The position numbers and the translations under genes were made by a program. The notes under the pieces are model-generated. The model did no database searches and was not told where the DNA came from. It worked only from the letters and a program-made list of their open reading frames with translations. A DNA stretch of 44,980 bases, filler included, from Streblomastix strix (Eukaryota), in assembly GCA_008636045.1 (NCBI GenBank). It is 2 parts of 2 records of this genome, joined end to end, with 100 filler letters (N's around TTAATTAATTAA, not from the genome) between each part and the next. Parts side by side here need not be neighbours in the genome. Positions count along the whole stretch, not along the records: positions 22,543 to 44,980 come from SNRW01000322.1; 1 more part is not named here. One strand, written 5' to 3'. Every line of letters starts with the position of its first letter. Position 1 is the first letter of the stretch. Below, piece after piece: positions 8,010 through 44,754 of the stretch.

Positions 8010-8071
8010 ATAAAAGTGCTCGTGCAATGCTCGTGCAGATATCAGAGGCAAATTTATTTTTTTTCTAGAAT

Positions 8072-9403: not shown

Positions 9404-9423
9404 TTTTGGAAACACAAAAAAAC

Positions 9424-10605: not shown

Positions 10606-10723
10606 ACATTAATCAATCTCATCAATATCATCAGTATTATACATTTTCTATGCAAAAATAAGATGCAGTTCACTGCATTCACACTACTGCACTTCAATGA
10701 GCATTTCATGCCCGCTGACAAAG

Positions 10724-11275: not shown

Positions 11276-11303
11276 TTCAATAAAGTAAAAATAAATTTAT
11301 GTA

Positions 11304-14300: not shown

Positions 14301-15661
14301 ACATATAATAAATGTGCATTTACCCCATTATTCATGAGAAGCACATTAAAGTCTCTCGTTGATGTTGGACGTTAATAATGATGGATAGCGTAATAATTTT
14401 ATTATTTTTCATTATCTCCATATGTAAATACATGCACATTAACCTATTCTTTATCGATGAATTCATCTACATCAGTTGCGAAATTGAAGCCTTAATATGA
14501 ATCATCGAATTCTTTTCCATAAATTCTTTTAAATATTCTCTTTCCTTCAGCGATTCTAGAACCATCTTTCCATCTTTTTTCCTTTGAGTTAGGCATAGTA
14601 ATGAATGAATATGCAGTAAAGAAACATAGATTCTATTTGCATTCTACATAGTAAATTTCTCTTCATTTGATGTGTTTTTATAATAATAGGATAGCAGCAT
14701 TCACCAATGAAAATTTATATACTCATATCATTACTGAGAATATTGCTACAATTTTTTAATGAGTATCCTCTTATGTCCTCTCTTACATATTTGTAATAAC
14801 GTCACGCATATAATGCTTATATTCAACGATATTCTCTTATGATTTTATGATTAATGGAACTCTTCTTTCAGGGTTAGCATCTACTGGAAGTACATATTTA
14901 TAACTAATCTTCTATTCATTTCCATCATATTCAGCTGTTTCAATTATTTTTCCAAAATCAGCTCTAATTTTGAATGCAGAACGCTATTATTGTCGATATA
15001 TTTGATCAAGAAATGTATCTAGTTAATCTAAATTTGCTAGATTCCTGTAATATGGTATTGTAGGTTTCTCTCTTGGATCTATGTTATTATTTACTTAGAA
15101 TGATAGAGTTTTAGTATTATTATCAAATCTTTCTAGAGCCTTATTCTTTACTATATTAAATTTAGCATCATCAGCTGCATCACATAGAATTATAATGTTA
15201 TTATCTGCAACTTAATGGAAAGGTTTATTCATATATTTTTAATGCAGTTCGTCCATCTCTTCTTCATGAGTTTTGAACATTGAATCTAGGTTTAAATTAG
15301 GAGTATTATGAAATTCTTCTATAGCTTAACGATTATGTATCTCATAAATATGTTCCATCTAGTGCTCATGACGTTATTCCTGCTATGGAAATTCTTTCTG
15401 AATTAGCTATCTCATTTTTGTTTTCATTTATTCTCTTTGTTATTATATTTGTGATTCCTATTCTGCTAATTATTTTTCAACATGTTCTATTATCGCTAAT
15501 TCAACTGCCTGCTCATCGTTTCTTTTTCCAAAATAATTAATTTACGTTAATATTTAAGATAATTTTGTACGTTAATCCTTTTCATTTATTGGTAAAATTG
15601 TATTTGGATCAAACAATCTAATTAGCTCTTATACTTTATCTAGACGAATTTTGATTGTCAT
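11304..15661 (-). pseudogene. Protein-primed family B DNA polymerase (pPolB 1) with TP-like, vOTU-like, zinc-finger and HNH/EndoVII-like domains
   Basis: ExoI ITYDIET, ExoII GFNSAKFD, RKNITGGL, motif A LDFDSQYAS, motif B KLILNSAF*G, motif C QLDTDS (DTDS 11777-11788). TGAs at 14723, 14663, 12062 and 11621 and a frameshift near 11595. Confidence 0.93.
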
Positions 15662-15694
15662 TTGATTTAAACAAAAATAATAACATCAACCTTT

Positions 15695-17017
15695 TCATTG
15701 GAATCCCATATTTATCAGAGTTTATCCTACATCTCCTTATATAGTTTAAATAAGCTGATGTGCTGTAGCATATAATCTTTATCCTTTTTTCTTTGTATTG
15801 AATATACGTTTAGAGATAGTTAAATCATCTAATTTTGCTTATGTATCTTAATGTTCATTTCTGTATTCCTGAATACGAGTTCCTTATGGATCAATTTAAC
15901 GAGTTGCTTATAATAATATTTAATTCCATATTTATGAAGCTAGTTTTGATACTAATGCAACATTTTTACTTGATCCTGCTCTTATGCAGTCCATATTTTA
16001 TGCAACTAATTTCTTGAATTAATTGTATTCAGATGGCATTTTATCACTAGCTATCCAATGATTATCTTCTGTAATATTTCCTTTGGTTAAAGCAGTATAT
16101 CTCTAATATGGAGTTAATAAACTATCATCAATACGAATTTTCTTATCTCTTCCTCTATTTGCACGTCTAGTGATATAATCGCCAATTCCATAATAACCCG
16201 CCATTGTGTATCTGCTCTTATATATTCTATGCTTGTCTTTATCCAATCCATCAAAACCCGGAACGGTGTAGAATCCATCAACTGCATAAATATTTCCATT
16301 ATTATTGTAAACAACCGTATTATCAGGAGTATTTACATCATTATCCAGATCTTGAGCTTCAACACGATAACCACGTTTTTCACGGTGACGTGCAATATAT
16401 TATTGAGCTGAACGTAATGAAGTAAGTTCACGATTTCTTTTAACATCTTTATTAAAGTATCCAATTAAAGTTGCAAGATCCTTTCCCGCAGCTGCTCTTT
16501 TTCCTTTAGCATTGTCACCTAAAATAATATCTTATAGAGCCGCATTTGGTTACACAAATTAGTCCATGTATATGTTTTGAATTGAGGAAAAATTTGTTTA
16601 TTGCGTTTATTCTATTGCACATATTGCTTAATTTAGTAAATCTTTCATCTAATTTTTGCTATCTGGATTTAATATAGTTGCATGTTACATTAGTTATTAC
16701 GCTACTTATGTTTAGGGTTATACTTCGTTCTGTTATGGCGCTTCAATCTATTGTAATGCTTCGTTCTATTATGAGGATATCTTCTAAGGTTTTTCCCAAT
16801 ATTTTTCTTATAATGCTAGATATCTAGATTAAAGATCTAAAATTGCTGCGTAATTATCTTTTTTTACATTTAATTTCTCTATTTTATACTATGTCTTGAC
16901 ATCATTGGTGGACTTATTAAGTTCATCAATATATAGTTGATTTTTACTACGATTAGCTATATATTTGATATCTCTAATTACTTTTAATGCTGCTCTAATA
17001 TCTTGTAATTAACTCAT
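15695..17017 (-). CDS. Viral hypothetical protein, 440 aa (intact)
   Basis: Uninterrupted code-6 ORF MSQLQDIRAALKVIRDIK...QDLDNDVNTPDNTVVYNNNGNIYAVDGFYTVPG...INMGFQ*, divergent from the ATPase. Confidence 0.75.
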
Positions 17018-17070
17018 TTGATATTTACAAAACGTTCATATAAGAGAATGAAATAATTAATAAGAAACAA

Positions 17071-17844
17071 ATGTCCTTAAACGCATATGTCGATCAATTA
17101 CTTAGTAAGTAGAAAACTAATAAACATGAAGTATAATACTCTATTCATAAAGAACTAAATTTCTCATATAATTCTATCAATCTACTCATAGGATAACGAG
17201 GAAGCGGTAAGTTATATTATGTATTCAAAGAGTTAATCAAATTGAGCTAATTGCCTATTAAATGATACACACTATTCATATATGTTACTGATAGCAATAA
17301 TGATATAACTTATAAGAAAATGAAAGATTTAATAACTATTCCAACAAAAATAGTTCCATACGCTGAAGCAAATGAGGTATTAGATGAAGTGATCGAATGT
17401 AAATAGGCTTATGATGAGGTTGTTGAAAAGAAATTAGAAAAATAAATGAAAAATGAATCAAAATAGGATATATTATCTAATATTGGAGCAAAGGACTTTT
17501 CTATCAAGTTTCCACACACAATAGTGCAGTTCGATGATGCTATGAGTATATTCAAAAGTAAGAATCATCCGTTATATAAGAAACTATTCAAAAATAGATA
17601 GCCTAGAATCACTTACTTCCTATGCTTATAAGATATAATTGGTTTGGATGCTAGTATTAAATCTAATGTTGATATAGTATACTTTTTCGGTGGTTTCAAT
17701 AGACAAAAATTCAATTTATTCTTCTATTAATCAAGCATTCCATTATATAAAGAAACGTTATGGAGAGAATATGTGCAATTAGGCAAACGAGAAGCATTAT
17801 TGGTACAGTATAATAAAGATGGAACAATTGTGAGAGTTATCTGA
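17071..17844 (+). pseudogene. A32/FtsK-like genome packaging ATPase
   Basis: Walker A LLIGQRGSGKL, Walker B TIVQFDDAM, and NRQPRITYFLCLQD (Arg and Gln motifs of A32-type ATPases). One in-frame TGA at 17263-17265. Confidence 0.85.
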
Positions 17845-19109: not shown

Positions 19110-19843
19110 ATTTTACAATAATCATATCACTTAGCTCAAACACTAAATCTATTTATATTCAAATACAATATCTAAAGGAATTATTTATTATTAAATAAAT
19201 TGAATAAATTGCTTTTTATTTTTATTTTAAATGATAGTAATATTCATAATAATTGATTGAAAGTATTAAACTCACCTAATGGATAGAATTAATTAAATTA
19301 ATAATCAATCTTGGATAATTCATTGTTAAAAAATAAAACAGTTAAGGATTGAATTAAATTAATGATTAAGTGAGTAATAATAAAATTATATCTTCCATTC
19401 TTGCATACGCACTATTACCAAATGGTGATAATATTAATGATATTAATAGTTTATAGTCTCTGCTTGAGACTGTTATTATCTGAGTTTAAATATAAATCAC
19501 TTCATAATTATGTTTATTTATTGAAATTATTTACTATATGAATAAAAATTAATTATAAAAGTTTATTTCTATAACAATTGTGAACCATTTTAGTTTTTCT
19601 TTGCTTATAGTTTGATAAAAATGAAAAGTTGCTATTAATTAAATTAATAAATACATCATAATTACATCGGTATACAAAATATTACCAATAGTCCCACTTT
19701 GGCGATTGAGGAGTGTATATATTATATCCAACAACTTCACCTTTATTGAGTGATTACCATCAACTATTTGAAGTGATTCTTCTGGCCATTCCCCAACCAA
19801 TGTTTACAATGGGGTGTCCATTTTAAAAACTGCAAAAGAAAGG

Positions 19844-22442: not shown

Positions 22443-22542
22443 NNNNNNNNNNNNNNNNNNNNNNNNNNNNNNNNNNNNNNNNNNNNTTAATTAATTAANN
22501 NNNNNNNNNNNNNNNNNNNNNNNNNNNNNNNNNNNNNNNNNN
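22443..22542. other. Artificial contig-joining spacer
   Basis: 44 N + TTAATTAATTAA (standard-code stops in all six frames) + 44 N = 100 bp. Confidence 0.97.
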
Positions 22543-23233: not shown

Positions 23234-23240
23234 TCATAAC

Positions 23241-23318
<78 letters not shown>

Positions 23319-26300
23319 ATAGGATTGCGTGGAGAATAAAGAGGAGTTTTCTGTTATTATACTTATTATTATGTTAATTAAGGAATGAAAGGTACTATTT
23401 ATTAAACTTATTATAACTAATTTATATTATTACTCATAATAGGCATATTCCCTTATAATGAATTTATATTCAAGTCATTATTTATATTAGATTAAATGTT
23501 CCCAATATTTTATTTGTTTTAGTTTGATGCAGTATTCATTTAACTAATATCATTTATATTATTGATTATTTATTGATTACTTATTTAGTTAGATAAATTT
23601 AAATACTATTATATCGTTCTTGGAGTTGTTTCAGGAGAAATAATTCTTTTTGCATTAATTAATTATTATTACAATTCAATTTATTAACCTATTTATTCTT
23701 CATCTTATATTGTAGGGTATTATTATACAAAAGAAGTAAATTATGGAGTTATAGATGAATATGTTTAATTTTGAAGGTTATTTTATATTTTATTTTATTA
23801 TAATTTCACAAATTTTTTCAATGATGTCATATTTTATGATTGTAACTTTTATTATGATAAAGTTTATTGAATTTATTATAATAATAATTAAGAAGAAGAG
23901 TTAGTATTTTATTTGGATATTTAAATATTCTCTCCATGGATTATTAAATATATCAATTATTTCTCAAGCATACTTAATTTATAAACAGATTGTGGACCAG
24001 ATGTAAATAATTACTATTTATCCAACAACTATTAATAAATTAATATTTGATTTAAAGTTTCTTATAAATTTAATTATTAGTACTGTTATTTGAATTATTA
24101 GATTTCATTACTTATTTGGATAGAATATGGTGTGAAAGGATCTTATTATAATTATAAAACGCCATATGGTCCTAATGAATAATAATAATCCAATATAATC
24201 TGTCTTTCTGTCATATGCAATGCTAATGCTAAACGAATCGCTAAGTCTAGATATAAAGATGATGATATTTCATTATCTATTTATTGCTATTATTCTTATT
24301 ATTATTATTCAATTTATTTTTAATATTCTTCAAATTGTTATTGTTATTGTTATTGTTATTCTTCTGTATTTTATTACTAAATTAAGTTTAATTGTTATAA
24401 AAATAATTAATACTATTACTCTCTTTCCAATTTTTATTGCTCTTACCGTTATATTTGTGCCTAATTCATAATTTAAGCAGTTATAGGCCCAGGAAACGTC
24501 TCGGAGAATTATTATGATGTTTGAATCATAATTATTAATTCACTCAAATGTTGCGCTGTTATTCCTTTCACTTCTCCATCTGATTCATTGAAATCATCTC
24601 CAAACAAATCTTTTGCTAAAAACTTCATCAATTAATCGTTCATTAGCATTGTATAGCACATAACATCTTCATCTATACCCAGTTATCCTATTAATGAATT
24701 TATTTATGCATGATATTATGTTTATATTAAATCTTGACTTAATATATCAATCCCTATTTGAAGCCCATTCAAAATATTTGTTTGATCTTTCTACATTTAT
24801 TATAAATAACTAATTATCTTTCTACAAATTTCTTCATTTTGTGTAATATGATTTAATACTTATAATGATTATTTAATTAATTATTCATTTCTTTGTATTT
24901 TTCTCATTTCATCTTTTTCTTCTTATGTCATTTCTCCTCGATCAAGTTCTTCAGACCATGCCAACCTCATTCTGAGCGATTTTAATACTTGTTTCTTAAT
25001 TGAAAGAAGAAAATACAAGGCTTCATTTCTTTAGTTATTTAGACGTATAAGTAAGAAGTATACCAATAATACTATCAATATGGTCATTATAATTCCAAGA
25101 ATACCCAAAATAAGAGCTACAATTAAAGCAATGTCATTTTCTCGTGCTAATTTCTATATAAGTTCGATAATCTATATTCTAAAACTCTAATCGTTCACAG
25201 TAGGTCCATTCATCATTATATTAGAGAATATATCAAGAATTGAATCTTTTGTTAACAATTAGGTTAAATTAGCTATCTAATATAAATTGTACGTATATCC
25301 ATTAATTGCATTCATCAATGTTTAAGTTTAGGGCCACTATTGAACTAAATTTTCATTTTCATGAATTGCTAAGAATGTTGTTAATTCTCTGCTCTATAAA
25401 TCAAGAAGGTCACTTTATTTCTTAAATATCTATCCAATTGTTAAGTTATGCAATTATCTGGATTAAACCATCAATTTCTCTCTTACTTCTTCTTTTTACA
25501 AAAATCCTTCAGCAAAAGCAAAATCTCTTTCATGAAATAAATAAATTTCATACAGCTTTGCATAATACGCTAATTCATTATTTAGTTTGTTAGCTGAACA
25601 TAGATCATTCAGTAATTAAACATGTGATGAAGTATTATTAACATCAGATAATATTTATAAAAACAATCCAACTCCAATGAATAAGAAAATAACAACAGAA
25701 AATGGGGCAGCATATTTAAGAATAAGAAACCATACATCACCGTTTGTATTAAACATTCCTTATATTCCTTATTCTCCAATTCCTTATTCATTATTGCTCA
25801 TTCCACTTCCATCTCTTCCTTCTTCATGAATTGATCTCGGCTTTCTCGCTCCTATTTAATTCATTGTTCCTCTTCTTCTTCCTTTCCTTATGTATTAATG
25901 CGATTATAGTTTTGATTCTTAAACTATTTGATCAGCTTTTTTGAACATTAATTGTGCGAAGTTGTCATATCTGAATATATCTGTTTTCAAAGATGCATAT
26001 CCTCTTAAAACTGGAATTGAATACGGATGTGTCTCAAGAAGAGCTTAATAATGCATTTCAGATTATTTTTCATTCTCAATTAATTCATCAACTAACATTG
26101 ACATTTGAGTTACATCCATTTCATCTTATGAAAGCATCGCGAGAACACTGTTTAATTTCTATTTAGCTTCAAAAAAATTCTATTCAGCTTAAGACAAATG
26201 ATTCTTATATCTGAATATCGAAAGAACATCAGCACTTTTTAGATCTGCTCCTGAATTTTCTTATTCATATATCTTTGACATATAGAATATAATCCATCTA

Positions 26301-29113
26301 TTATCAATAGTGGCACCAATTCTTAGAGCAGTAGCTAATTATCTAATTGCAGCTGTCCAGTCTTTCAAGTAATGACAAAGGAATAATGCATAATGAATTC
26401 GAAGTGATGGATGTTTGGGAAACCGTTTTAAACCTTCCTTATATAATCTATCTGCAAAAAGAATATAGTCTTTTCTTTTTCTAACTTCTTTATTCCATAG
26501 AAATCTTACACCTGCATCGATATGCGAAACATGCTTAATCTTTGGAAGAGCATATGGAGGTTCTAAATGAATTATTTTCTTGGCCTAATTTTCAATATGT
26601 TGTTGAAGAGCTTTCATTTAAACAACAGATGCCATAGTGTTCATTCTTTATCTCAATAAATTCTAAAATGCATCATTCACATCATGTTTTGAATGTAATA
26701 CAGGAAGAATGTATTAGAATTAATCTTTACTGTGATTGCTAATAATATCATTAGAATTGTTTTTAATAAGCATTGAATCTTTTCCCCTTTATGAATATTA
26801 TCGGTTCAGTTTCATTTTTGGAGAATTAAGAGATAATTATTTGGAAATTTAAGATTAAATTGGTTGAATTTAAGAATATGATTGTCGTTACGATTAGGAT
26901 TAATTTTAATCTAAATGAAGAGCAGGAACAAAGTGAAGTGGAGGAACACTCACTTTTGGCTGATCATATTTCCTTAATTAAGATGAAGAAATCGATTATT
27001 TCAATTTATTAATTTGACTATATTCGTTATTTGGTGAAATGTCTTCAACTTCTAGTTTCTATTGTTAAGATTTTTATTGAATTTAACTATTGCTCTATTA
27101 TTCCTTTTTCTCTTCTTTTAAATTTGACATATGCAAATTATCATTATTAGAGAGAAGTTTAATTCTATCAATTTCTGAATTATAATCGCTTTAAATAAAT
27201 TCAACATTCAAACTCTTTATTGGAAGAGGGGCAACTTTAATTCCTTTCCTTTTACCTTTTATTTCATTATCTTATTATTTCTATTATTATTTTTATTATT
27301 AATTATCAGATTTATTCATCGCTTATTAATCAGAATGGTGGAGTTGAGCCATGTTAAGAGTTTAAGCATATGGAAGTTATTATAATGATTGTAAATGGAT
27401 TCTATTACTGAGTTGAAGTGAAGGTGTAAGTGACAAAATTGGAGATTTTTCACTTATTTTTTCATCTCTTTTCTATTATTTGTTATCTGTTAAATTTTTC
27501 TTTATTTAAGAAGTTTCTTATTATTAAATCTAAGCATTATATTACTTTTAATGTATTCTCTCACTCATTTCCTTCAGTTTCTAAGTAATATTAGATGAAA
27601 CAGAATATTCATTTATTGGTTATATCAGATCATATTCAGATGAATCATCATCACTCTCTTCTTCATCTTATTATTGAGGATAGAAGCTTAATTGTTTTTC
27701 GAAATTGGCTTTTATTGTACTAGCAGTAACATGGTGGTTTTAATCATATTTATTCTTCTTGGCCGTTGCAATAATCTCCAATTCTTTGTCTTATTTTATT
27801 CTTGGTTTATTATAAAATGTGTATTTATTATCAGATTGTTCATCATCTGTATCATTCTTATTAACTCGTATTCTTTATCGATTCATTTCCATTTCTTTCA
27901 TACTTTTCAATTCATATACAAATCCTCTATATGTTGAATAGTAGCAATCTTCTACTTCAACATAGAAAGGCTTTTTCTTCTGAACAAATTCTATATCTGC
28001 TTTCACTGGTATCTTGAAGTCATATGTGATTGCGCATCTGGCTAAATATATCTTCCTCGAATATACGCCAACGAAGAAGGTCAAAAAGAATGAGCAAATA
28101 ATAAATGTTGACCAAAATAATGTAATAACAAGAGTGCCAGCTCCTTCAGTATAAAGTGCAATCCATGAATATAATGATGCCATTACTGTTACTCCATATT
28201 GTGCAGATGCAAAGACATTAGTGTGAAGTGAGTGATACGGTTGCATCCACATTATATATAACATGCAAAATATAAATCCTACACTACAACAGATAGATCT
28301 CAAAACAAAAGAGCTTGACACCCATTGTGATTCTGCTGTTAATATACATTTTGTTGCCATTTCTACGAATTCATATCTGCCAGAATGTGCAGCAAGAAGA
28401 ACATCATGTTTAACATCGAACTCGTAGAGGAATAAGATGACGATTTATGTAAAAGGAACGAAGACTACAAGAGTAAAAAATGAAAGGGAATTGAATACAG
28501 CTTAGGCTCCTTCCCAACAAGGAACTTCAGGGAAAGCATCGCACATTCCTTTTCCTGAACTGAAGTCACAATCTACTATCATGAATATAATTGTAATCAT
28601 TGGTTAATATCCCCAAGTAACTGATGCATGTGTTACAATTCGTAATAAACGAACAAGAGGTAAAGGAACTCTAGAATCACCTTTGGCAAAAACAAACATC
28701 AATGCTACAAATGTAAATACAGAAGCCATGACTAATACAAACAGAACAGTGAATAGAATGTAAGATAGATTAGGTGTAGTTGTAAAGAATTGAAAGTCCA
28801 TGTAATCTAATACTCCCATAATAAATCCTTTTAATGGTCCCATAGGCCATGCTACAATTTCTTGTATTGGCAATCCAACACATTGCAGTATCTCAAAAAG
28901 TAATGGTGCATATGTCATGATAGTTTCCTCATTGGAATCGTCTTCTCCCTTCTCCATGGCAAATAATGTACCTTATTAATATATATATTTCAATAAAATA
29001 AATTACATTATAATAATCTTAATTTAAAGTGAAAATTATATACCGAAGAGTGCTCTATCCCAAGTTTCAAAATTCAGAAGTATCTAACCCTTATCAGAAG
29101 AGTTTTTGTTCAT
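23234..29113 (-). CDS. Host TmcB/TmcC (tiny macrocysts)-like multi-pass membrane protein, ~1935 aa; intron 28972-29043
   Basis: Exon 1 29044-29113, a GT-AG 72-bp intron, then a 5738-nt exon with no in-frame TGA until 23234-23236. N-terminal TM bundle (VDC...PEVPCW...HSGRYE...QPYH), TPR-like region (ADRLYKEGLKRFPKHPSLRIHYALF...ETHPYSIPVLRGYASLKTDI), two further TM segments and a Q-rich tail. Confidence 0.85.
23243..23317 (-). repeat. (TAA)25 microsatellite encoding the C-terminal polyQ of the TmcB-like protein
   Basis: TTA x25 on the + strand, in frame as TAA=Gln just before TAG TTA TGA. Confidence 0.9.
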
Positions 29114-30215: not shown

Positions 30216-30418
30216 TTGTTTTTGGGGTGTCTTTGGAAGAAAATTAAAATGAATAAATAATAAAAAAAAATAAACACATTAATAAATTTAAATTTATAAA
30301 AAATTAATTATTTAAATTTTTTATTTTTTATTTTTTATTTTTAATCTCACAATTAAATCACACTTTAATTCATTTTAATTTTAAACAAAGCACCGTTTGA
30401 ACTCGCAAAACAACAACT

Positions 30419-33400
30419 ATGATATCTAGACTTACAAAAGAATAATTAGGTTCATTGGATAGACTTATTGGTTTTGTTGGCATGCATGACTTATCAAATG
30501 AAACTGTATTACATGCACGATTTGAGATAGAAAATGCTCTTAAGTATTATTAAGTTGCAAGACCTGATACATTTTCTAGTGATTTGAAGCAAAGAATTGT
30601 CGCGGTAGTTCAACAGCGATAATAAGAAGAATTGCAAAAGACATCATAAGAACAAGCGACATCGTCGTCAGCGACGCATGCAACGACAACGCCGGAAGAT
30701 TAAAATGAAGTGCAAGATGATTTGCAAACCATGACATCAAACATTACAATAGAATAATTAGAAACATTGAGTCGACTTATTGGTTTTGTTGACGTGAATG
30801 ACTAATTTGTAACTGAATCATCTTTACGTTCTAAACTTCAAAGGGCTTTTTAGTATTACAATGTACCAGGATCTTACATATATTCAAATGAATTGAGGCA
30901 AAGAATCGTCGCAGCAGTTCAACAATGATAATAAGAAATTTTAAAATTGTAAGATTAAGCTGTTTAACGTCGTAGATAAGCTTTGTTACCTGCTCATCTT
31001 GATGAATAAGCTTAGTTACCAGCTCATCTTGTTGAATAAGTCTTACCAGCGTAAGAAAAGGAAAAAGAAAATGTTAAAAAACCACCTAAATAAAAGAAAG
31101 ATCCAATCAAAATAAGGTATTTATTAGATGGTTCTAATCTTTCTCCTTAATTTATTATGTAATAACTGAAAAGACTAGGATATGACGATGATGACGCCGA
31201 TTTTATTTATAATGATCTACCTGACTTAGTTACATTTGAATTAGACAAATACGACTATGATTATTCTTAACCGTCAACTGAAGCTAGAATAAGAGAATTT
31301 TTAAATTAATGGTTTACAGAAAAACCATAAGAACCAGTGGATATTTCAATCTTGTAGCCTCTTTCAAGTGAAGCTCTTGAAAATATACGTTAAAGAAAAA
31401 AGAAACCAATACAAGCTCCTGATTAGGAAATAGATGATTAAGAAATTTTGTCGCAGAAGATTGTTTCGCAGACTTTAGATGATTAAGATGAATAAGGTGA
31501 AAAATCGATCAAATTTGAAACTTTAAAAGAGGATGCTCTTAAATAAAATCATCGTGAATAGTTTCAAAAATATCTTGATGAGAAATATAAAAAGATAAGG
31601 GAATAACATAATAATATCGAAGAACTGTAACTACAAGCATTTAGACTCTTAGATGAGGAAATGAGAGAATAAATTGAAGTGAATGAAGGCAGTGATTTAG
31701 AATATGTGGAACCGATAACTCACTAAGGTGAGCTGGCAACAGAGTTGCTACTAAATGTGGATGCATTATTATTATATAAACCTATTGATTCAGATAAATT
31801 TATAATAGCATTACTTCAAGCTCATGCTGAATATTAAGATCCAACTAGAATTAAATAAAGAAGAATTAAAGATGAACCGACGATATTCTATTATAATAAT
31901 AAAATTACTTCATTAGAAGATATATAAAATCATTTAAATTTTGTATTCGATTAAGAAAAAATAAATCATTTTAAGATTGCTATCGATTTTGGTTATATAG
32001 TTGAAGAAGCTATTACTAATAATGACGGAAGTAATAAAACAGCAGAATATACTATCAATTATCCAAGATAGAATTTAAATACTATATCAGCAAAAAATAT
32101 TAAGAAAATAATTACTTCACAAGCTGATATGGATGAATTTAAAGAATATGTTCCAACAATTATAATAAATGATTAAGAGAGGACACAAGAATCAACTCAT
32201 CATAAGTTTATTGCAATATTTTCTATGGTTGTAGTTGTTTATCGATATCCTCTAACAGGTAAAGCAATTCCGGAATTATAAAAATATATTAAGCGTCGTG
32301 AAGTTCATTTTATTGATTCGTAATATCCTAATAATTGTGTGTTTGAAGCATTATCATTCTTATCATTGCCAGACAAAACGTAAGAAAAGAGATATAAAGA
32401 TCACGATAGAGTTGCTGAAGGAGTTAAATTAATAATTTAATATTATAGTCTTTAAGGAAACTCTGCGAAATGCAAAAATATTTAGAAATTTATCAAGGAA
32501 TATTAAGGTTTTGATTTTGTAACTGATAGCAAGAAATTTGCTAAATTATTTAATATAAACATTTGCATTTATGCATGCAAAGAGATTCCAATATAGTCAG
32601 ATCAAGGTGACACAATAACGGCATATGACTAATTCTACTTAGATTAGATTATCGAACCAGATAAAGATGATGCTGACGATGATGAAAAAGAATATTTAAA
32701 TGAAGAAAACAAATTATAATTATAAGATTTTAATTTACTGTTGCTTTAACTTAAAAATAATTCTCATGTTTTATTTGTATCTGATCCTGAAGCATTAACA
32801 GGTTATAGTAATTGTCCATTTTGTAAACAACACAGTGTTCCAGTTAAAAATAAGAACCGTAATGCATAAAGAGATTTTGAAAGACATGTTGCAAAATGTT
32901 AATAAAATAATGGTAAATAAGTAATATTATTAAAATCTCTTTCACTAATTGCTCCTCATATATTTGGAAATAAGACTTATTAATATCTTATGGCATATGA
33001 AAGACTAGATGAATTTAAACCAACAAGATATTTTATAACATATGATTTTGAAACTGTTCCAAGAATAATTAATTTAGGATATGGAAGTAAATCAGTTATA
33101 AATGGCATTGAGGTTCATAACTCTTAATAACATACTGTGCTCGAACCGTTATCAGTTGCTTCAACTATTAAATCAAAAGCAGGAATTAAGAAAATATATT
33201 TCGATTTACGTTAAGAAAATTTTATTGAAAAATGGCTTGAATAAATGTTCGAAGAAGCTAAATAATTGAAAGAAGATAACCAATACGATGACCCTGAAAT
33301 ACCATATGATATTTCAATTCCTGTTCTTGGATATAACTCAGCGCATTTCGATATGGTATTTGTAATCAGATATTTAACTAATCCATTATGGCACATTACA

Positions 33401-35863
33401 AGTTATTTAGGAGATTTTACACATATTAAGCGAGTAGAAGTTAAACATAAAATTACTGGAGTAACGTTATAATTTTTAGATGCTATGCTATTCGTAACAA
33501 AAGGAAAATTAAAATAGTTTGCGGCAGATTTTGACAATGGCGGCAAAGATGACTAAAAAGGAGTATTTCCTAATGATGCTATTAACATAGACAATTATGA
33601 TGAGATCTTATCAAAATCTGAACCATTCAGTAAAGAAGATTTTGATAACAAACTTCGAAAAGAAACCATGACAAATGAAACTTATCAAATTTATCTTGAA
33701 GACTGCAAATAATTTATGAATAGATGGGATTATCTACAATACTATAATGAACAAGATACAAGTATTATGATAAAACCAATCGAAAATTTAATTGAAATGA
33801 ATTTTGAAAATGGGATTGATATGTTTAACTATATTTCTATGGCAAGTTGTACCAACACTATTAAGTATAAAATGGCATGTAATGATTTTGATTAGAATGC
33901 ACGTTATACTAATCAAAATGATTCTTCATTCATCAACTTCTCTCCATTTAATCTTACTGAGGAATATTGGGAATAAAAAGTAAATTCATATAAATAATAT
34001 GGCTTAAGAGCTAAAAGAAGCATCAAAAACAATGTATAAGAATCTGATTTTGAACAATTTGTATAACTGATTGAAAAAGGATCTTGTTGGTTTTGTAAAG
34101 CAAGATTTACGAATGAAAATCGACCAACACTTGACAGAATTAATAACGCAATTGGTCACTCAAAAGATAATGTAAGATTAGCATGTGTATATCGTAATGT
34201 TGCAAGAGCTAATAGAGATGATAAAATAACTCGATTAAAGATATAACTTAAAAGATATTATTTAGCAAAAGGTTTACCAATGCCAATTACTAATGAAGAT
34301 ACTTATCACATTTTGAGAAATGGAATTACAGGAGGATTAGCAAATGTTATTCATAGATATAATATTAAAAGCGAAACTCATATTAACAAAATGAAACTCG
34401 AAGAAAGAAAAGTATTAATCTATGACTTAGATCATATCATGACTCATATAACTGGAGTTGATAAGAATTCACTATATCCATCTATGTTTAGTAGTCTAAA
34501 ACATGATTTTATTAAATACACCGGAAATTAAATTAATATGCCTGGTTATGAAATCAGTCGAAACACATGCGTTACAGATAAATAAAAAAATTAAGCAATG
34601 GAAACTATTAATAATACACTAAGATTTTCATCAAAATAATCTGATATTGATAAAGTTACAATGTTCGTTGCAGAAGTTAAAGGACATATCGATGAAGAAT
34701 ATATCAATGATTTTATTAACTTTCCACCATTAATTAGAAAATATAAATACAAGGCAATGGAATCAGTTATTGGAAAATATATGCATGAACATTAAAAGAA
34801 AAATGGATTACCAATTGATAAAGAAGAATATAAACTTACTTCTTTACTCTCAACAATGGGTTAATTTATGAGTTTTTATTCATATTATCTTTGGTTTCTT
34901 ATCGATGATTGTCATTTTATAATCGATGAAGTTAAATCTGTTATGACATTCTCTAAACATCTTGGATTTGCACCATTTGTGAAACATTTTAATCACTAAC
35001 ATATATAGGCAAAGTTAGAAAAGAATAAAGGACTATAATAATATATTAGGATATTAATGAATAATTCATATGGTTGTGATGGTATGAACTAAGAACACTT
35101 CTCGCAAATAAAAATATGTGATAAAAATGAAACATTTAGAGCACTTCTCAAGGATATCTTTAAAACAGATCGTAAATTAAATGAAAATGTATATGCAGTT
35201 GAATTTGAAAAGTTAAAATTTAATTGCAATACTTGCATTTAAGTTGCATTTGCTGTTTTAGATTGTTCCAAGTACTAGGTTATGAATTTCTATTATAATT
35301 TCTTATGTAGATGTCTTGACTAAAATCGATTTCATTATGTTTATGGTGATACAGATTCAATGATGTTAGCTGTTGCTGGAGATCCGAATTAAGATTATAC
35401 ATAAGGATTCTCTGCAACAGTTTCCGATAAATAATTTTACGATAAAAACTTTTATAAATTCTTCCCTGATTCCAAAAAAGATATATATGATGAAAAGAAA
35501 TTGCTTGGAGTTGCATATGAACATTGCGGCTCGTCATTAACTGCTTTAGCACCTAAGAATTATTGGCTTTTAGAAGATCTTGATAAAAAGAATCCCGAAA
35601 CAGTTAAACTAAAAGGTCTCAATTTAAAATCTAATCCACAAATTAATAAATAAACTTATGAAGAAAATATTAAGAAAGGAACAATAGTTAAAGATAAGAA
35701 TATGTCTCTTAAATAACGTGCTGGATAAATGAGTTAAATTGAAGTTCTTAAAAACGGAATAACAGGATGTCATACAAAAATGGTTACATTACCAAATTAA
35801 TGTTGTTGTCCATTTATTTATTAGCTAACTGCTCACAGTTATAAGTGCCAAGAGCTGTAATGA
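30419..35863 (+). pseudogene. Protein-primed family B DNA polymerase (pPolB 2), 1815 codons, near intact
   Basis: One frame throughout with a single TGA at 30926-30928. Motifs ITYDFET, GYNSAHFD, YYNEQDT, HNH-like CWFC...PTLDRINNAIGHSKDNVRLAC, GVDKNSLYPS, RILMNNSYG and YGDTDS (35342-35359). Confidence 0.95.
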
Positions 35864-35909: not shown

Positions 35910-36770
35910 ATGAATAATGATTGGAATATAACATCCCTTTCACCAAGAAGATAAGGAGGTCATTACTTAAGACCGCGAAAAAGAAAATCGGAAGAAGAAA
36001 TTTTAAATGATATCCTTGAAAGATATAAAACAAACAAGCAAAGTGAAGTTGAGTAATCCCGTTAGATATAAATTCTTGTAATTTAAGAAATATTTAGGAA
36101 AAATCAAAATTTAGACTTAGAAGAATTTATTGAAGCACTTGATTTACATGATAATGATGCCGAGCTTCCAGTAATGTAAGAATATGCAAATATAATAATA
36201 GTAGGAGGAAAATCAATAATATAATGGTTTAATGATTATAACTATGAAATGGCAAATAGAGGTTAAAAAAGAAAGAACATAAGATAAGAATTGAATGTTG
36301 GTGAGCAATAATTGAGATTAAACGTAGAATTCCGATTCAAGTCGATAATAAATGCATTTTAGAAAATACATGGAATTCAATTCGATAAAAACGAATTTAA
36401 AGCTGATGACATGCCGCAACGCAGCTTAATCCTACTTTGGAGTATTGTTGATATTCCAGATTATTAAGTTAAGTAGTATTATAAGAAGTTTGGAAACCTT
36501 ATTTTTCTAAAACATTGATTCATGGGAAATTGATTTAGTATTCGCAATGAATCCATTAATAAAGAAAGCAAGTGCAGTTTATTTATTCCGCATCAAAATC
36601 AATACCAAATATCTTGTTGTATATCCATTAGTTAATAAATCAGCTGATTAAATTCTAAAAAATGCTATAAAATTTAGTGAACCATCAGAATATGAGATAT
36701 ATTAGAGGTGATGGAGAAAAAAGATTTACTGCATCATAATTAATAAACTTCTACAGAGATCCATGTAATA
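35910..36770 (+). pseudogene. Retroviral-type integrase of element 2 (frameshifted, 3' truncated)
   Basis: KPYFSK/DSWEIDLVF, YLFRIKINTKYLVVYP and YIRGDGEKRF align with integrase 1. It ends before the third catalytic residue. Confidence 0.8.
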
Positions 36771-37057
36771 ATTTAATAAAAGCATTTTTCATTAGTGGAT
36801 CACTGGCACCAAAATTTTTACTTTTTCTGATGATAAGATTAGGAGTACGATCCCAATGCTGCCTGAAAAATTATTTATCTATTACAGTACTAAGGTTAGA
36901 CGTATGGTTTCCACACTGTCTGATTAAAAAATATCTTATTTTATTGATTTGAATGGGCATACGTTTTCAATGAAAAACCAAAAATTATTAGCAAAATAGG
37001 TAAAATTCAAGAATTTCAATTAATTATGTGATTTTTTTGCTGATAAATGTTTATATG

Positions 37058-37469
37058 AGTAGTATAGTCCCGGGAATCTTGCGCTCAAAATAGTTAAATT
37101 AAAGGGCTAATTTATCCATTAAGGCCTCAAAATCGTGCTAAAATAAAGGAAAAGAACTGATTTTTGAGTAATTTAACCAATGTTTTATTTATTTCGTGGG
37201 AATATGTTATTTCAATAATATTTTTTTACATTAATTCCTACAGTTTTTGATTAAAATTGACGTAAAATTAATGAAACACGTAATTTTATGGGGAGAAATG
37301 TATCATTATCACTATCCCAAGCCGAAAAACGAAATAATGTGGGTACAAATGTATAATTATTCAAGAATCAGTTCTTTTCCTTTGTTTTACCACGTTTTGA
37401 GGCCTTGATGGATAAGTTAGCCCATTAATTTAACTATTTTGAGCGCAAGATTCCCGGGACTATACTACT
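37058..37469. mobile_element. 412-bp non-autonomous mini-Polinton-like element with ~115-bp TIRs
   Basis: 37058-37173 and 37355-37469 are near-perfect inverted repeats starting AGTAGTATAGTCCCGGGAATCTTGCGCTC and ending GACTATACTACT. No target-site duplication seen. Confidence 0.75.
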
Positions 37470-37523
37470 TTTTCCGACTATAATAATTACCTGAAGTTAA
37501 CTCTTCCCCAAACTCCTAACTAA

Positions 37524-37646
37524 TTTTGAAAAAATAAACAGAGGTGCAATCTGCTTTTATTTGACTGAAAGTTAGAGCTATAATTAATCTTCAACCTTAA
37601 CTTAAAAAAATTTTGAAAAATAAAACAGAGGTGCAAATTTCCTTTT
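37524..37646. repeat. Two direct copies of a TTTTGAAAAA-TAAACAGAGGTGCAA-T-CTTTT motif
   Basis: Copies at 37524-37560 and 37611-37646. The same motif occurs at 42741-42779 (direct) and 42178-42196 (inverted). Confidence 0.75.
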
Positions 37647-37896
37647 TTCTGATCCCGATTTAATTAGATCACTCTTTTCAGACCGTACCCTGTTAATTTA
37701 ACTTTATCTTATCTAGATAAAATAAAAATTATTTTTTTATTACAATAATTGGTCTTATCAAAAAATTAATTATTAAATTTACTCCATATCATATCCCCTC
37801 AATTAAAATGTAGTAAAACATATTAATAATTGAAGTAATAATTAAAGCGGGTACTTGATAAAAATAATTTTCCACACAAAGGATCAAGATATAATT

Positions 37897-40800
37897 ATGA
37901 TGCATTCTAATAATTTATGATTGACCTTGACACTAGATTAGATAACTAATTTTATTAACGTTAACCTATTACTCCAATAACTGATTTTATATAGATAAAG
38001 TAGTAATTAGAGCCCAAATTATAGTATATTCTAGCCTCAATTATTTGAAATTAATTAGTAAATCGAATCAGCACGCAAACGTAAATTATTAAAATTAGCT
38101 AATGACAGGGTACTAATATTAGCTCATCCTGCAGATCTAGAAGAATTTACTAAAGTACTCAATGATGCCATACTGAATTATTAAGATTAGAATCACGTTG
38201 AACGAAACCCAATAACAATAGCTCATTATAATAATAATTAAATAACAATCTTATCAAATATATACGATTTCGTCGATTAAATTCACACTTCAATGAAGAA
38301 TAAAATATATAAGCTAGCTATTGATTTTGGATTTATGTATGAGAGGAAAGAAAGAGATAAAAATAATGACGAACGTATTACTTATGGCTACATTATCCCT
38401 AGAGAATAAATGACAGAAAGAAGAACCCCGATATTAATACGTAATTAATAAGATATTGAACTATATAAAAATTTTTTTGAATCATTAATTATATCTATCC
38501 AAGAGCGTACATTAACTGATACAAAGGAAAAATTTATTGCAATTTATTCAATGTGCGCAAGAACATATCTACTTCCAATCAGTGGTAAATCAATTCCGAG
38601 TATCAAGCTACATTTATCCAAGAAGCGCTAATGCCTCAGATACGTTAACTCACCTTTTCCTAATGCTTGCGTACTGGAAGCAATTGCGAGATATTAACTT
38701 AAAGATAGTAAGGAAAAAGATATAGTGATAAATAAGTACATGCAAAGATGAAGGAAATAGGTACTCTATTTTATGGGGAATTTAACCCTAGAACATTTGA
38801 AGGATTCAATTACGCAACAGATATATAATTAATTCATAAACACTTAAATTTATCTGTTAACTTATTTTCCTATGAACAGGACGACAGTTTTTTTCGCTAT
38901 TATTTAGCCTAATCTTTTCCAATTGAAGGAGATAACGAAATAAATTTATTACTTATCTAATCTGAGGAACTAAATGGTATTAATATCCACACACTACAAA
39001 TGACAGATAAAGAACGCATTACCTGACTATTATTTTGTCTAATTTACTAAAATCATTGTTTTCAAGTTGATTAACTCACTAAAGAGAACATGGCTAAACA
39101 TACAGATAAATGTCGACTGAACAAAGGTTAAATTAAAAAATAAGTTAAGTTGGATTACATTCAACGTCCATTCGTACCACATATCATGTAAAATAAGACC
39201 TATCTCTATCTATTAGCAAATAATAGAACTAATGAGTTTAAGTCAACTTAATACTTTATTACTTATGATTTCGAAACATATGAATAAAAAATTAATACTG
39301 ATTTTTGTAATGATAGTAAATTAATATCAAAATTAATCCCCCTATCAGTAGTCAGCACTATTTATTCCTCTAAGGGTACTAAATCTATTTATTTCGATAT
39401 TCGAACTAATAACTTCGTAAATTTATGGTTAGATACTATATTTAAAGAAGCTGTTTAAATTAAACACGATAATAATTATGATGATGAACTTATCCCCTAT
39501 TCAATCGAGGTTCCTATCTTTGGATATAATTCCGCTAAGTTTGACATGTCCTTATTATTCCCATATTTATCCTCAAGCTAGTGGAAAATAACTAGCTATT
39601 TATGGATTTCTTAATTCTGTAAATAGTTAATTATTTCACACAATAATTTATCAGTTAAACTTAAATTTTTAGACGCATTCTTATATGTTGCGCCACCAAT
39701 GACATTGAATCAATTTGTTATCAACTTCTCAAACTAACAGTAAAGTAAGGGTCTAATTCCTTACGATCTAATGGTAGATGACTATGAAAAGTAGCTGTCT
39801 TAATCTATCCCCTTTAATTAATCCGATTTTAATAACACGTTGAAAAATAGTTCCATAACAGATGAGGAATATTAATAGTACTTACTGGAATATAAATAAT
39901 TTAGCAATAGATGGGAATATTTGAAACATTATAATATACTTGATACCTCTTTAATGATTGAACCAATAAAAAATTTAATTAAGCTGTTCTTTGAATATAA
40001 AGTAGATATGTTTTAATTTATCTCGATGGCCAGTTGCGCTAATGCGGTCAAGTATTCTATGCCTTATAACGAATTTAAATTAGATGGCGATTATAGTATC
40101 AATACGTTTGATCCACCATTCTATCTCACTCCCTAATATTGGAAAGCTAAAGTAGAAGGGTATGTAGCCTAAGATAAATTGGCCCATAGACCTATTGATA
40201 ATAACGTGAAGGAAAGTGATTACGAAAATTTTCAAAAATTATTTAGATAGCCTTGTTATATATGTAAAGATAAATTTACATTTAAAAACAAGCCCACATT
40301 AGACTGAATAAATAATTCCTTATCTCGTACTATAAATAATGTAAGATAGTGCTGCTTATATTGTAACTAGGTTAAAAGTAACCATAATAAGCAAGAGATG
40401 AAACTATTGATATAATTAAAAAAATATTATTAAAAATATAATTTTCCTACAATAATTAGTAATCAATGAGTGTACTAAACCTTAAGAGATCAGATCACAG
40501 GTGGATTGTGTAAGGTAATGAACCGTAAAAATATTGCTAATTAAACTAAAATAAAAATTAGTACATTAAGATAAGGTGAAAGTTATTGAAACAAATAATG
40601 TTGTTACTAATATTATAGGACTTGAATTTAATTCATTATTTCTAAGTGTAATTAGCAGTTAATTTCACCCTCTAAATCTATAAACTAATCATAAATTATT
40701 TATGGCAGGGACAGTTAAAGAAATTATTAATGTTAATGAATAAAATAAACAACGTTGTTTAAATATTATTAATTCCCCAACAAGATACACACTTGCGGGT

Positions 40801-42017
40801 TAATTACTTATCGCAACAATTAAAGGACACATATCGGATATTAATTCACACATTAACTTTCCACCTATTCTGAGGAATTTATCATATCAAACTAACGAAC
40901 AAACAATTGGAAGTTATACCTATAACTTTATGAAAAATAATAATTTAATGGAAGATAAAAAAGAAAGTAAATTAATTTAATTATTACCCACTCACAATTA
41001 ATTCATGTCCTTCAGCTCCTATTATTTATGGTTCCTGATTGATACATGTGGGTTTGTAATTGATGACATTAGTTAACTTATTTTATTTACCAAACACGAT
41101 TAATTTAATACATTTGTTAACACATTTATGAATAGGCGATATAAGCGATTAAATCTAATAATAACGGGTTGGATTAATTTTGTAAAATAGTGATGAACGC
41201 TAGCTATGGGTCAGATGGGATGAATACAGAGAAGTTTAGTAAAGTAAAATTAAGAACAAAGCGGACACACTTATTTCACATTTTACCAGTAATTTTATGA
41301 ATAAACGTTAATTGGACGATAATTTTTATACTGTCTAATTTAATAATGATAAATGTAAATGTACAATACCATTATAGGAAGCATATTTTACACTAGATAA
41401 CGCCAAGTATTGCTATTTTAATTTCATACATAATTTTATGTATAAGTGCTTGGATAAAAATAGGTTTTTTTTTTGAAGGAGATACAGATTCAATGTACTT
41501 CGCGGTTGCAGGCGATATTAATTAACCGATTAATTAGGATTTTAAATATATAATTACTGATCAATAATTTTATGATACGAACTATAAGTATTATTTTCCA
41601 ACAACAGACGGCCTAATTGAATAAAAGAAGTTATTAGGATTAGCGATTGAAAAAGAAGGTGATGTAGCGATAGAGTTATCCTCAAAAAATTATTATATCA
41701 ACGCTACTCTTTAGAGCGGCAACAAAGTTGCTAAGAACGAAATAATTAAATTAAAAGGAATTAATTTATCATAAAATGTTATAACTAAATAGAATATATT
41801 AGATACGATTGATGGAAAAATAATGAAGTGTGTAAATACTCGTTTAGATTAGAATGATGGAGTTATGTCCAAATTATCCCTAAATACGAATGACCTAACT
41901 GGCATTCACACTAAAATAGTATTATTACTCAATAGCTAATTAGCCGTACCATTCATATACCAACTATCAGCTACAAATTATATAGGTTTTTAGCCAACAA
42001 TAAATGCTGATGAATGA
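37897..42017 (+). pseudogene. Protein-primed family B DNA polymerase (pPolB 3), decayed
   Basis: YKLAIDFGFMYE, NACVLEAIA, ITYDFET, FGYNSAKFD, HYNILDT, CYICKDKFTFKNKPTLD*INN...CCLYCN, GLEFNSLF, KIVMNASYGSDG, EGDTDS (~41475-41492), GIHTKIVL. Several frameshifts and TGAs, and the start is uncertain. Confidence 0.9.
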
Positions 42018-42160
42018 ACCAGCAATATAATTACTCGAGGAATAATTATGGATCAATTGGTACTCTATCTTCAAAACAATATGGGAGGCAGCTATAAAAT
42101 ATGCTTGTGAAAGTAAGATATGTAAAGTTTGACCCCGCAAATTTGCTGGCTCGATTTCAC

Positions 42161-42795
42161 GCTAATTCTGGGTCAGATAAAAGGCAGATTGCACCAAAGA
42201 AATAAATTTAAAAAAATGGAAATTAATTGTTGAGCTAATTCAAACATTAATCAAGAGGGTGATGGTGTAATTTAGCGACTCCAGATAATAATATTAATCA
42301 AGGGGTTAATTTTCCCCCATTACTTTTTATCACATATAAAAATGTCAGGATCATGTTGCCACTATAACGAATAATCCCTAAATTATAATGTAATTGGTAA
42401 TTTATGTTACAATAGAGGATATCTAACATCTTATTAGGGTAAATTAATATTAATATTTACACCTTAATAATATTAGTAGTTCAAAAAAATATATAACGAT
42501 ATTATGGAAACATTTGAAAAATAACGATAAGAGTACAATAATAATAGGTTAAATAAAATAATTTATCATTATCACTAGTGCTTCGATGAATGTGCTGATG
42601 AAATAAATTAGCGATAAAAATTACTTTAATTATTTTTGACTGCCTAAATTTAGACACACGATTTCTACCAACCAAAATTGTTTCCTTAAAATTAGCCCCG
42701 TATTAGCGTTAAAATTAGCCCAACAATTAATTTCCAAAAATTTTGAAAAAAATAAACAGCGGCGCAATCTGCCTTTTCTATGACTTAAAATTAGC
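42161..42795. repeat. ~85-bp inverted repeat pair (42161-42245 / 42708-42795) flanking a small ORF
   Basis: GCTAATTCTGGGTCAGATAAAAGGCAGATTGCACC...TGGAAATTAATTGTTGAGCTAATT aligns with the reverse complement of the right arm, GCTAATTTTAAGTCATAGAAAAGGCAGATTGCGCC...TGGAAATTAATTGTTGGGCTAATT. Confidence 0.8.
42342..42746 (+). CDS. Small hypothetical protein (up to 134 aa) inside the IR cassette
   Basis: MSGSCCHYNEQSLNYNVIGNLCYNRGYLTSYQGKLILIFTPQQYQQFKKIY.... AAAAATG start context. The C-terminus runs into the right repeat arm. Confidence 0.45.
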
Positions 42796-42811
42796 CCAAT
42801 AATTAATGTTT

Positions 42812-44754
42812 TTAACCTGCCATGATCATACTACCACCAATTTCTCCAATTACTTCTAAATTTAATATTTATGGTTCAGGGCATCATCAAATTTAATTCT
42901 AACAATTGAATCAAACAAGAAATGAACCAGTGATGTCTACGCAATCTATGTTGAAATAGAGTAGCTTCTAGTTCCAATAAATCCAGTGAAATTATATTAA
43001 TTTTTTCTGGTTGCAAAATCATTATCCAGAACATCAAAAATTATCAATAGTTCCATTTACAATATCATAATGGAGTATCATATATATATTAGTTCTAGCA
43101 CCTATCCTTGAACTATTATATCCTCTCATGAATGAGTAGTCAGTTGCTAATTTCCATATAAGCATAAATTTATTCAGATAATATGTTTTTATAACATTAG
43201 ATCCTATAAATAATGTTGTATTAAAAAATTTGTTATCTTATTACTCTGCAGGCCCAGTATCTTTGCCATTTTAGCAGTTCTTATCATTAATATTAATGTT
43301 CTCGAAAGTAAGTGAACGATAAAGATCAGATAGTGCTGATACAATATCCAAGCCAACAAAGCATTAAAAAATCGAACTATTTACACCTACAGTCAATGCT
43401 TCATATGGATTAGGTGTCGCGTGTTTTTGGTCAATGATTAAATGAATCTTCTTCAATAGTAGTAGGAAGAACCAAGTAGGATATTATTACATAACAAATG
43501 TTATAAATACACTTTTTATATTAAAGAATGACATTATCGTTTACATTTAATTTCCTGACATTGGATAATTAGTTGATTTTGTCTTTAATTCTTATGTTGG
43601 GAAATGTAATATTTTTTATGCTCTAATCATATCGATAATGGCCGTTTCATTCTCCATAGTGAAACATAAATTATGTATAGATAAATAATCAAAAGAAGCT
43701 GTATCAATCTATTATATACTATTCTTGGGGTCAGTATCGGCATCGTCCAAATCTTTACAATTAATCATTCGAACTGAATAGTAGATGTTTGCAGGTGGAT
43801 CACTATCATCTAGTAAAGTAATTATATCTGGTTTCTCCGCAGGTATCATAGCGTAAGCTAAACAAGTATCAAACGATCTGGATTTATTTAACAAACTACT
43901 TTTAGATCTTATAGGAAATCGGTCATCCAAAGTTATAAATATAATGAAGCATAGTTTCTAGTTAGTACAGTGAATTCATTAAATATCGGGTTAAATTAAT
44001 TCAAATCCATTACCCCAAAGAATGTAATATCTTTGGGATAGCGATAGAAATAAGCGGTTGTACCAGAAGCAGCAACAACTTCGGATAAATGTACATCGAA
44101 AAACACACCACAATGGCTTTTGCCTTAAACTATATTTTTTAATGGTGAAACAGTAACATTATTATTAACTGTGAGGTCAGATAGTGAATTAGAATAAATA
44201 ATAGCTTGTTCTCTAGTGTAAATAGAAGTTTTCCATAATTTTGTATTATCTCGACATATAGCTATTTATTATAATGGCCCACAAGCTGTTGAGAATACTA
44301 ACCAAAATTTAAGTGTTTCGCAAATATTATATTTTTGTGTTTCCTACTTTATATCCGCTGCTAGTGCTATTGTAGCTGTCTTAGTTCCATTAAAGTTTGT
44401 TCTAGATCTTGCAAATTCTGCGTTAGATAACGTATCTTATGTTAAATTTACTTTATTTAATTATATCCCTATAGTATTAGCGGGTATAGTAATTGTCCAA
44501 TTAACTTAGCAGGTCTAAACACAACAACATGTTGCACTACCTCTAGCCCCTAATGGAGCACAAGTTTATCTAGTACCACCTGAAGTTAAAGTATTTCTTG
44601 GCTAGTCAAAAAATTCCTATTTGGATAGTGTGAATGATTAAGGTTCAATAGTTAATGTTCTTAGCACTTCATTTAGTGCAGAATATGATGAAACATATTC
44701 CGAATGTGATGCATTCGATAAACGAGCTAAATAATCTGACGCGCTGAACGACAT
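42812..44754 (-). pseudogene. Putative double jelly-roll major capsid protein (frameshifted)
   Basis: About 645 codons rich in short beta-strand-like segments (FWLVFSTACGPLQQIAI, MDLNQFNPIFNEF, SLYLQLW, ITFPTQ, NKFMLIWKLATDYSFMRGYNS, VHFLFDSIVRIKFDD, LNLEVIGEIGG). Frameshifts near 43895, 43037 and 42881. The capsid call rests on size, composition and context only. Confidence 0.6.

Follow-up and report, generated by a model that had tools for sequence, protein, structure and literature searches.

The stretch of DNA analysed here (the window; 44,980 nucleotides), from the termite-gut oxymonad Streblomastix strix, carries pPolB-, integrase-, ATPase- and capsid-like genes, as Polintons/Mavericks do. 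The host reads TAA and TAG as Gln; translation with table 1 yields 7 ORFs of at least 100 aa, and table 6 (TAA/TAG = Gln) yields frames of 1568 and 1959 aa. Three related polymerase-like genes, sharing 33-44% identity by tblastn, lie at about 11310-15073 on the minus strand, at 31157-35863 on the plus strand, and in the region termed element 3 (pPolB3, Table 1). The second is an unbroken frame of 1568 aa whose exonuclease and palm motifs are separated by an insert resembling endonuclease VII (PHROG, E 2e-7). A weak PHROG match to DNA polymerase (E 1.3e-4) is the basis of the assignment, the polymerase ORF having no match in Pfam or PDB, and the frames contain what we take, by eye, to be B-family motifs. 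The polymerases are putatively protein-primed. An rve-like integrase ORF at 9637-10752 is named from a Pfam match under the cut-off (E 0.005), and an ATPase near 17000-17844 was recognized by eye from its Walker motifs.

The capsid gene near the right edge of the window takes its name from homologues. Its ORF at 43849-44754 has 187 of these; all 120 that are listed come from S. strix, and the name "Major capsid protein" is attached to 2. One homologue (P0068) scores 0.96 with Capsid_N-bearing Atlas clusters, and the predicted capsid fold (mean pLDDT 52, no PDB match) is too poor for use. An annotated S. strix protein (P0122), from a sister contig, proved to be a gene model that fuses parts of a capsid, an HNH and the N-terminus of a pPolB, all on one strand; homology to it sets the start of pPolB3. 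Since HNH and capsid there precede a start resembling that of pPolB3, pPolB3 need not adjoin the end described below.

Several further features were recorded across the window. Beyond the element 1 integrase, a second arm-core-arm arrangement (8072-8173 and 8698-8799) has arms about 80% alike over 103 nt and 524 nt apart; the structure at 8072-8799 contains repeated CCCGTGCA-like motifs, is unrelated to the AGTAGT arms, and has a short match at 5299-5332. A 71-bp direct repeat of 96% identity occurs at 589-659 and 19681-19751, 19 kb apart. Between viral blocks, a minus-strand ORF (23234-29113) encodes a Gln-rich, host-like membrane protein of 1959 aa and has a long ATT run at its end. The 169-aa ORF upstream of pPolB2 contains an internal repeat (30415-30628 and 30727-30937, 72%). 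Two runs of 44 N's, at 22443-22486 and 22499-22542, were taken as scaffold gaps.

Table 1. Features at and around the 412-bp structure, in window coordinates
Feature	Positions	Strand	Remarks
Truncated, frameshifted rve-type integrase ("element 2")	36520..36802	+	tblastn with ORF 9637-10752, E 1e-9
Single-copy left flank, 255 bp	36803..37057	.	X1 depth 13.8; no protein relatives found
Outer arm, 116 bp, begins AGTAGT	37058..37173	+	Likely true terminus of a larger Polinton-like element; adjoins single-copy DNA
Core, 181 bp, no recognized gene or RNA	37174..37354	.	Multi-copy; sisters have diverged and longer versions
Inner arm, 115 bp, inverted copy of outer arm, ends ACTACT	37355..37469	-	Internal in many sister copies
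Continuation common to sister copies	37470..37510	+	Family sequence rather than insertion site
~82-bp repeat unit, copy 1	37511..37591	+	66/80 identical to 42728-42810
~82-bp repeat unit, copy 2	37598..37678	+	
Very high-copy segment	37680..37900	.	X1 depth 6000-16000 in bins 37684-37888; joined to inner arm in sisters
Broken, frameshifted pPolB-like gene ("element 3")	38083..42017	+	tblastn with other pPolB ORFs of the window; tied to the arm by adjacency only
~82-bp unit copy, 18 bp past the stop of the ORF remnant after pPolB3	42150..42225	-	
~82-bp unit copy adjoining the capsid gene 3' end	42728..42810	+	
Frameshifted major capsid protein gene	42815..44754	-	Named from homologues

The structure of main interest measures 412 bp. 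A first-pass annotation had described it as near-perfect TIRs of ~115 bp around a 181-bp core with AGTAGT...ACTACT termini, and the sequence agrees in each respect: the two arms are alike in 108 of 116 alignment columns (7 substitutions and 1 indel, no difference across the outer 45 nt), AGTAGT stands at 37058 and ACTACT at 37464-37469. The same annotation had likened these termini to those of Polintons, and rightly, as (AGT)2//(ACT)2 is the commonest end motif reported for Mavericks (PMC8097293). It had also given TATATG and TTTTCC as the letters flanking the structure, with no 6-bp TSD; this holds, and no duplication of any length from 4 to 12 bp is present at the ends. Shifting the ends by -8 to +3 and -3 to +11 gave a 4-bp TATA, off the ends, as the sole duplication, and none of 1-3 bp was seen by eye. 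The placement at the junction of elements 2 and 3 is inexact in one detail: the decayed element 2 integrase stops at about 36802, leaving 255 bp of single-copy DNA before AGTAGT.

As single-stranded DNA, the 412 nt are predicted to fold with -125.2 kcal/mol, compared with -33.5 +/- 4.2 for 100 shuffles, none of which was equally stable (z -22). Scans for other content were negative: Rfam gave 0 matches over 36700-38100, a bacterial promoter scan found 7 sites against 7.4 expected, and the minus-strand frame over 37364-37792 had 0 protein matches among 9 candidates of 78-251 aa. Within the window, no further copy of the arm, the core or 37680-37930 was found at an E threshold of 1. A resemblance of the core to an integrase C-terminal piece was rejected: its score was matched by only 0.7% of 1500 random pieces, but it had been selected out of 15 queries, and in a comparison by hand, the family letters at 37308, 37311, 37326 and 37334-5 mostly worsened the match.

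Sister copies were followed in contigs from four termite-gut DNA runs (X1-X4) of two studies. X1, X3 and X4 represent one sample, which may be the source of the window's own DNA. Contigs aligned on 36700-37900 numbered 617 in X1, 110 in X2, 25 in X3 and 0 in X4, and those aligned on 37421-37510 numbered 115, 10 and 5 in X1, X2 and X3. The depths given here are summed contig depths, which differ from copy number and count single-copy flanks too low, but the contrast along the stretch is large. Most of the left arm has an X1 depth of 650-900; the depth is 400-1700 in the core and 1500-3550 in the right arm, and reaches 6000-16000 over 37520-37601, as it does in the high-copy segment of Table 1. 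Core depth lies far under arm depth (about 4300), which means that a core like this one at the 85% level is missing from most arms; many of them are plain ends or have other cores. Sisters with two arms and a related core do occur, as seen from the X1 joints 37132->37414 and 37185->37395 and from an X1 contig containing both arms and a piece of core with 20 differences in 146. In a 1178-nt X1 contig of depth 905, 594 nt lie on the inner side of the arm match and no joint to a second arm is among those listed, so that its subfamily has either a longer loop or an unpaired arm. This contig is unbranched with the arm in its middle; it may represent free viral DNA, or a very uniform subfamily that is young or over-amplified. 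Other collections added nothing: arm and unit scans of a viral contig collection gave 0 matches, as did a search there for pPolB relatives and scans of a genome contig collection, and 6 loci returned for a 17-mer in a metagenome contig scan matched over only 19-29 nt and were taken as chance.

The left side of the structure borders DNA of a different kind. X1 depth over 36864-37027 stands at the low value of Table 1 versus 600-4400 across the arms, and one X1 contig (36769-37099, n = 1) spans the left junction with 0 differences from the window. The 255-bp flank has 0 protein relatives among 1.84 billion representatives; the idea that it is half of a host gene, which would have marked the far end of the insertion, found 0 relatives to build on. 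At 36802, where the integrase remnant ends, depth drops from 1800 to 14. An X2 loose end behind this position goes on in frame like an intact integrase, at the point where the window switches to single-copy DNA. An interruption of the element 2 integrase by the 412 bp was considered and rejected, the integrase having already ended at 36802.

On the right side, two kinds of end were distinguished. In the first, sister sequences stop exactly behind 37469: among the loose ends listed, 10 X1 and 2 X3 contigs do so, and their flanks agree with one another at 0.55 and 0.68, respectively, close to the 0.47 and 0.65 of ten and two random window pieces. These flanks are therefore mostly different, which makes ACTACT a physical end in several places. 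The excess in X1 would fit a common flank in about 4 of the 10 contigs, or very AT-rich targets (85% AT); no second conserved flank appears among the loose ends listed, and an agreement of 0.55 leaves room for one.

In the second kind, sisters run past ACTACT and into common sequence. Loose ends behind 37472-37473 comprise 10 + 4 X1 contigs, 1 X2 contig and 2 X3 contigs. Ten of the X1 contigs agree at 0.69, a value attained by 0 of 5000 random window sets (mean 0.47) and by none of the 2000 sets drawn for each of five AT contents, the highest being 90%, and the X2 contig, from the second study, begins with the same letters as those of X1. The start of this class resembles the right flank of the window, a likeness that 319 of 20,000 random pieces equal and that is modest when taken alone; three X1 contigs extend the alignment to 37493-37499 with 7-10 differences. 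X1 depth steps from 2235 (37466-68) through 1725 (37469-71) and 645 (37472-74) to 16 further on. Bounds from bin means put the share of depth that continues past ACTACT to 37472 at 43-77% in X1, 68-95% in X2 and 32-63% in X3; the 905-depth contig accounts for much of this share in X1, and without it the X1 bound becomes 54-820 of 1330. A large share of sisters thus continues beyond the right ACTACT, and the right arm is often internal. The free-standing 412-bp element proposed in the first-pass annotation is not supported in that form, the right flank being common to sister copies at the X1 and X2 depths just given.

The right arm and the sequence beyond it also occur together on one strand, in the X1 joints 37467->37686 and 37472->37605 and in an X3 contig combining 37364-37550 with 37680-37790; these three separate contigs or joints tie 37605-37802 to the right arm. 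Among the contigs listed, none is identical to the window over the right junction, which diverged sisters do cross. Nor is the coding sequence of a pPolB, integrase or capsid gene linked to the arm by any contig aligned on the covered range (36700-37900). The two arms of the window agree with each other at 37454, where 92% of the depth in X2 reads otherwise, and at 37458, where 67% of that in X1 does, in line with arms that change together.

Beyond the continuation, the right flank contains two copies of a unit of ~82 bp. The first is 82% identical to the copy beside the capsid gene (score 80, compared with a maximum of 29 among 4811 random scores), and the unit stands in tandem in sisters (joint 37585->37518, depth 1000). 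The presence of a copy at the capsid 3' end ties the right flank to the viral family. The unit may be a subterminal repeat, or else a signal at the 3' ends of viral genes. An inverted pair at 42161-42251 and 42702-42810 (73%) fills the gap between the convergent pPolB3 region and capsid gene; it is built from the ~82-bp unit, whose copies here each lie shortly beyond the end of a gene, and may alternatively represent a second MITE family. The copy at 42150-42225 was rejected as the right TIR of element 3, being 62-65% like the left units compared with arms 93% alike, and the idea that 37680-37900 is an ATPase 3' end yielded no match.

We read the 412 bp as the terminal structure of a larger Polinton-like element that truly ends at the left arm and carries, in the right arm, an inverted copy of that end in its interior, a reading that we consider about equally likely to be right or wrong. 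Given a single-copy left flank, a common right flank and no TSD, the AGTAGT at 37058 is most simply taken as a real end, and an internal right arm beside a real left end would explain the missing TSD. The 412-bp sequence is very probably the terminal sequence of an S. strix Polinton-like family. The earlier suggestion that it reveals the family terminus thus probably holds, as a multi-copy arm ends exactly at ACTACT beside mostly different flanks in a genome rich in Polinton-like elements.

In a larger element of this kind, the outer AGTAGT end would serve as the origin at which pPolB initiates by protein priming, and the rve integrase would join the same end to its target. The right arm, inverted, would run on into the body of the element, and the partner of a 6-bp TSD would be expected where the large element stops on its other side rather than at 37470; a far end with TATATG beside an ACT motif was not found in the window. 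The weakest step of the proposal concerns the displaced single strand, in which the arms may snap back on each other to form a stem of 115 bp around a loop of 181 nt. Such a local fold could rebuild a duplex origin without the pairing of ends 15-25 kb apart, and could also keep both arms alike.

Polinton/Maverick TIRs (PMC8097293, PMC6431247) offer a close likeness. TSDs of intact Mavericks measure 6 bp and their TIRs 46-1447 bp (PMC8097293), a TIR range that includes the arms of 115-116 bp measured here, and the full TIR of the larger element may be longer. Unlike in those elements, the motif-bearing arms lie 181 bp rather than 13-25 kb apart, the 6-bp TSD is missing and the right arm is often internal. 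The 412-bp feature works like a Polinton terminus; taken alone, it lacks the TSD and the free ends of a member element. Further background on Polintons and their TSDs is given in PMC12220804, PMC6431247 and PMC5499653, and TIR-only Polinton remnants have been described in C. elegans (10.1101/2024.01.15.575659). S. strix endogenous viruses of the Metamonada group, for which 820 MCPs are listed (PMC10120064, Table S1), share the TAA/TAG = Gln code and capsid homologues with the window; their ends are not described in the portions of that paper drawn on here.

Inverted repeats in the terminal regions of integrated viruses have also been reported for Halocafeteria seosinensis virophages and PLV subtype 4, which have 52-nt palindromes inside their TIRs beside the TSDs (10.64898/2026.07.28.741278). 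According to the same source, these palindromes occur mostly in elements without pPolB, were found with a gap limit of 10, and are proposed to be hairpin primers in replication. Here, by contrast, the arms are 115 bp long with a 181-nt loop, what would be a whole protein-priming end is copied, pPolB genes adjoin, and the 412 bp have no TSD. In the panhandle model for adenovirus and PRD1, a displaced strand pairs its inverted repeats, thereby rebuilding the origin and restoring homology; direct evidence for panhandles is lacking according to the same article (PMC11886824). There the two genome ends pair with each other, and here the proposed partner lies 181 nt off. Among the papers listed by the literature searches, none describes a Polinton end that contains a complete inverted copy of itself; Kapitonov and Jurka (2006) may already mention such ends.

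The chief competing explanation, an amended form of the first-pass proposal, treats the 412 bp as a non-autonomous derivative of a Polinton that kept both ends and lost its body. It would have been moved in trans by pPolB and integrase, landed in the body of a Polinton, been amplified there as a passenger, and then lost its left flank and TSD to an adjacent deletion. Full motifs at either end, sisters with two arms and a related core, and exact ends beside differing flanks all speak for this account; the neighbourhood on the left is rearranged, with the integrase cut at 36802, and an agreement of 0.55 permits a second common flank. We nevertheless regard it as rather unlikely. It has to accommodate the missing TSD and the lack of a second conserved flank among the loose ends listed, and it requires a deletion that stopped exactly at AGTAGT, hence more steps for the same data. 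Moreover, in two studies the inner arm and its continuation are preserved among subfamilies with differences at 7 of 49 letters, a conservation for which an inert passenger would have no use. A doubled end of a larger element is the more likely of the two, and other arm-core-arm copies with two free ends may exist beside it.

MITEs of cut-and-paste transposons are short and non-coding, with long TIRs and many copies, and the 412 bp resemble them in size (<~800 bp), TIRs, non-coding core and copy number. The structure could accordingly be such a MITE lying inside Polinton DNA, its AGTAGT ends arising by chance, and the further arm-core-arm structures of the window (8072-8799 and 42161-42795) would suit this. 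Transposons of the MULE type are known to enter PLVs (10.64898/2026.07.28.741278). Yet no TSD of any length is present, the right end is usually not free, and the ends carry the exact Maverick hexamer, for which chance stands at about 2e-4 per position (AGTAGT occurs 19 times in the window on the two strands together, or 2.1e-4 per position). Furthermore, the 21 window ORFs scanned include the rve integrase and no other transposase. We consider a MITE distinctly unlikely.

A very unlikely alternative keeps the left arm as a real end and assigns it to a longer non-coding satellite of 1-2 kb or more (arm-core-arm-units-unknown) that uses Polinton enzymes, with pPolB3 a mere neighbour by rearrangement. 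Sister contigs do extend 535 nt (the 905-depth contig of X1) and 1115 nt (X3) past the inner arm with no link to a gene, the minus frame over 37364-37792 is without a protein match, and P0122 shows another order upstream of pPolB3. Against this, the unit found in the body adjoins a capsid gene elsewhere, and depth is higher over the body (6000-16000) than over the integrase stretch (1800-2800). An assembly chimera, in which the short-read assembly fused two loci by taking the left arm from one and the core with the right arm from the other, is the least probable account: the presumed scaffold gaps at 22443-22542 and a right junction not found letter for letter in contigs would allow it, but both junction types and the arm-core-arm order recur in independent contigs, so that even a misjoin at this locus would leave the layout as a feature of the family.

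Under the reading as a doubled end, a further possibility, unlikely as we see it, is that an inner inverted copy of the origin lies inside each end of the element, and that trimming of the tail after snap-back frees a 412-bp mini-replicon with two ends, which the integrase could insert, giving the family a supply of defective satellites of its own. Work on adenovirus minichromosomes, attributed to Wang and colleagues in 1991, reportedly obtained a two-ended mini-replicon from such a fold with tail trimming.

For S. strix, these observations provide the probable terminal sequence of hundreds of endogenous viruses, by which full copies and their TSDs could be called. They also caution against taking every short, TSD-less pair of TIRs in Polinton-rich DNA for a MITE. 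If an inner copy of the origin proves to be a fixed part of the end, it would constitute a version of the panhandle step of protein-primed replication that is open to testing, and would offer a route by which Polintons may shed minimal satellites.
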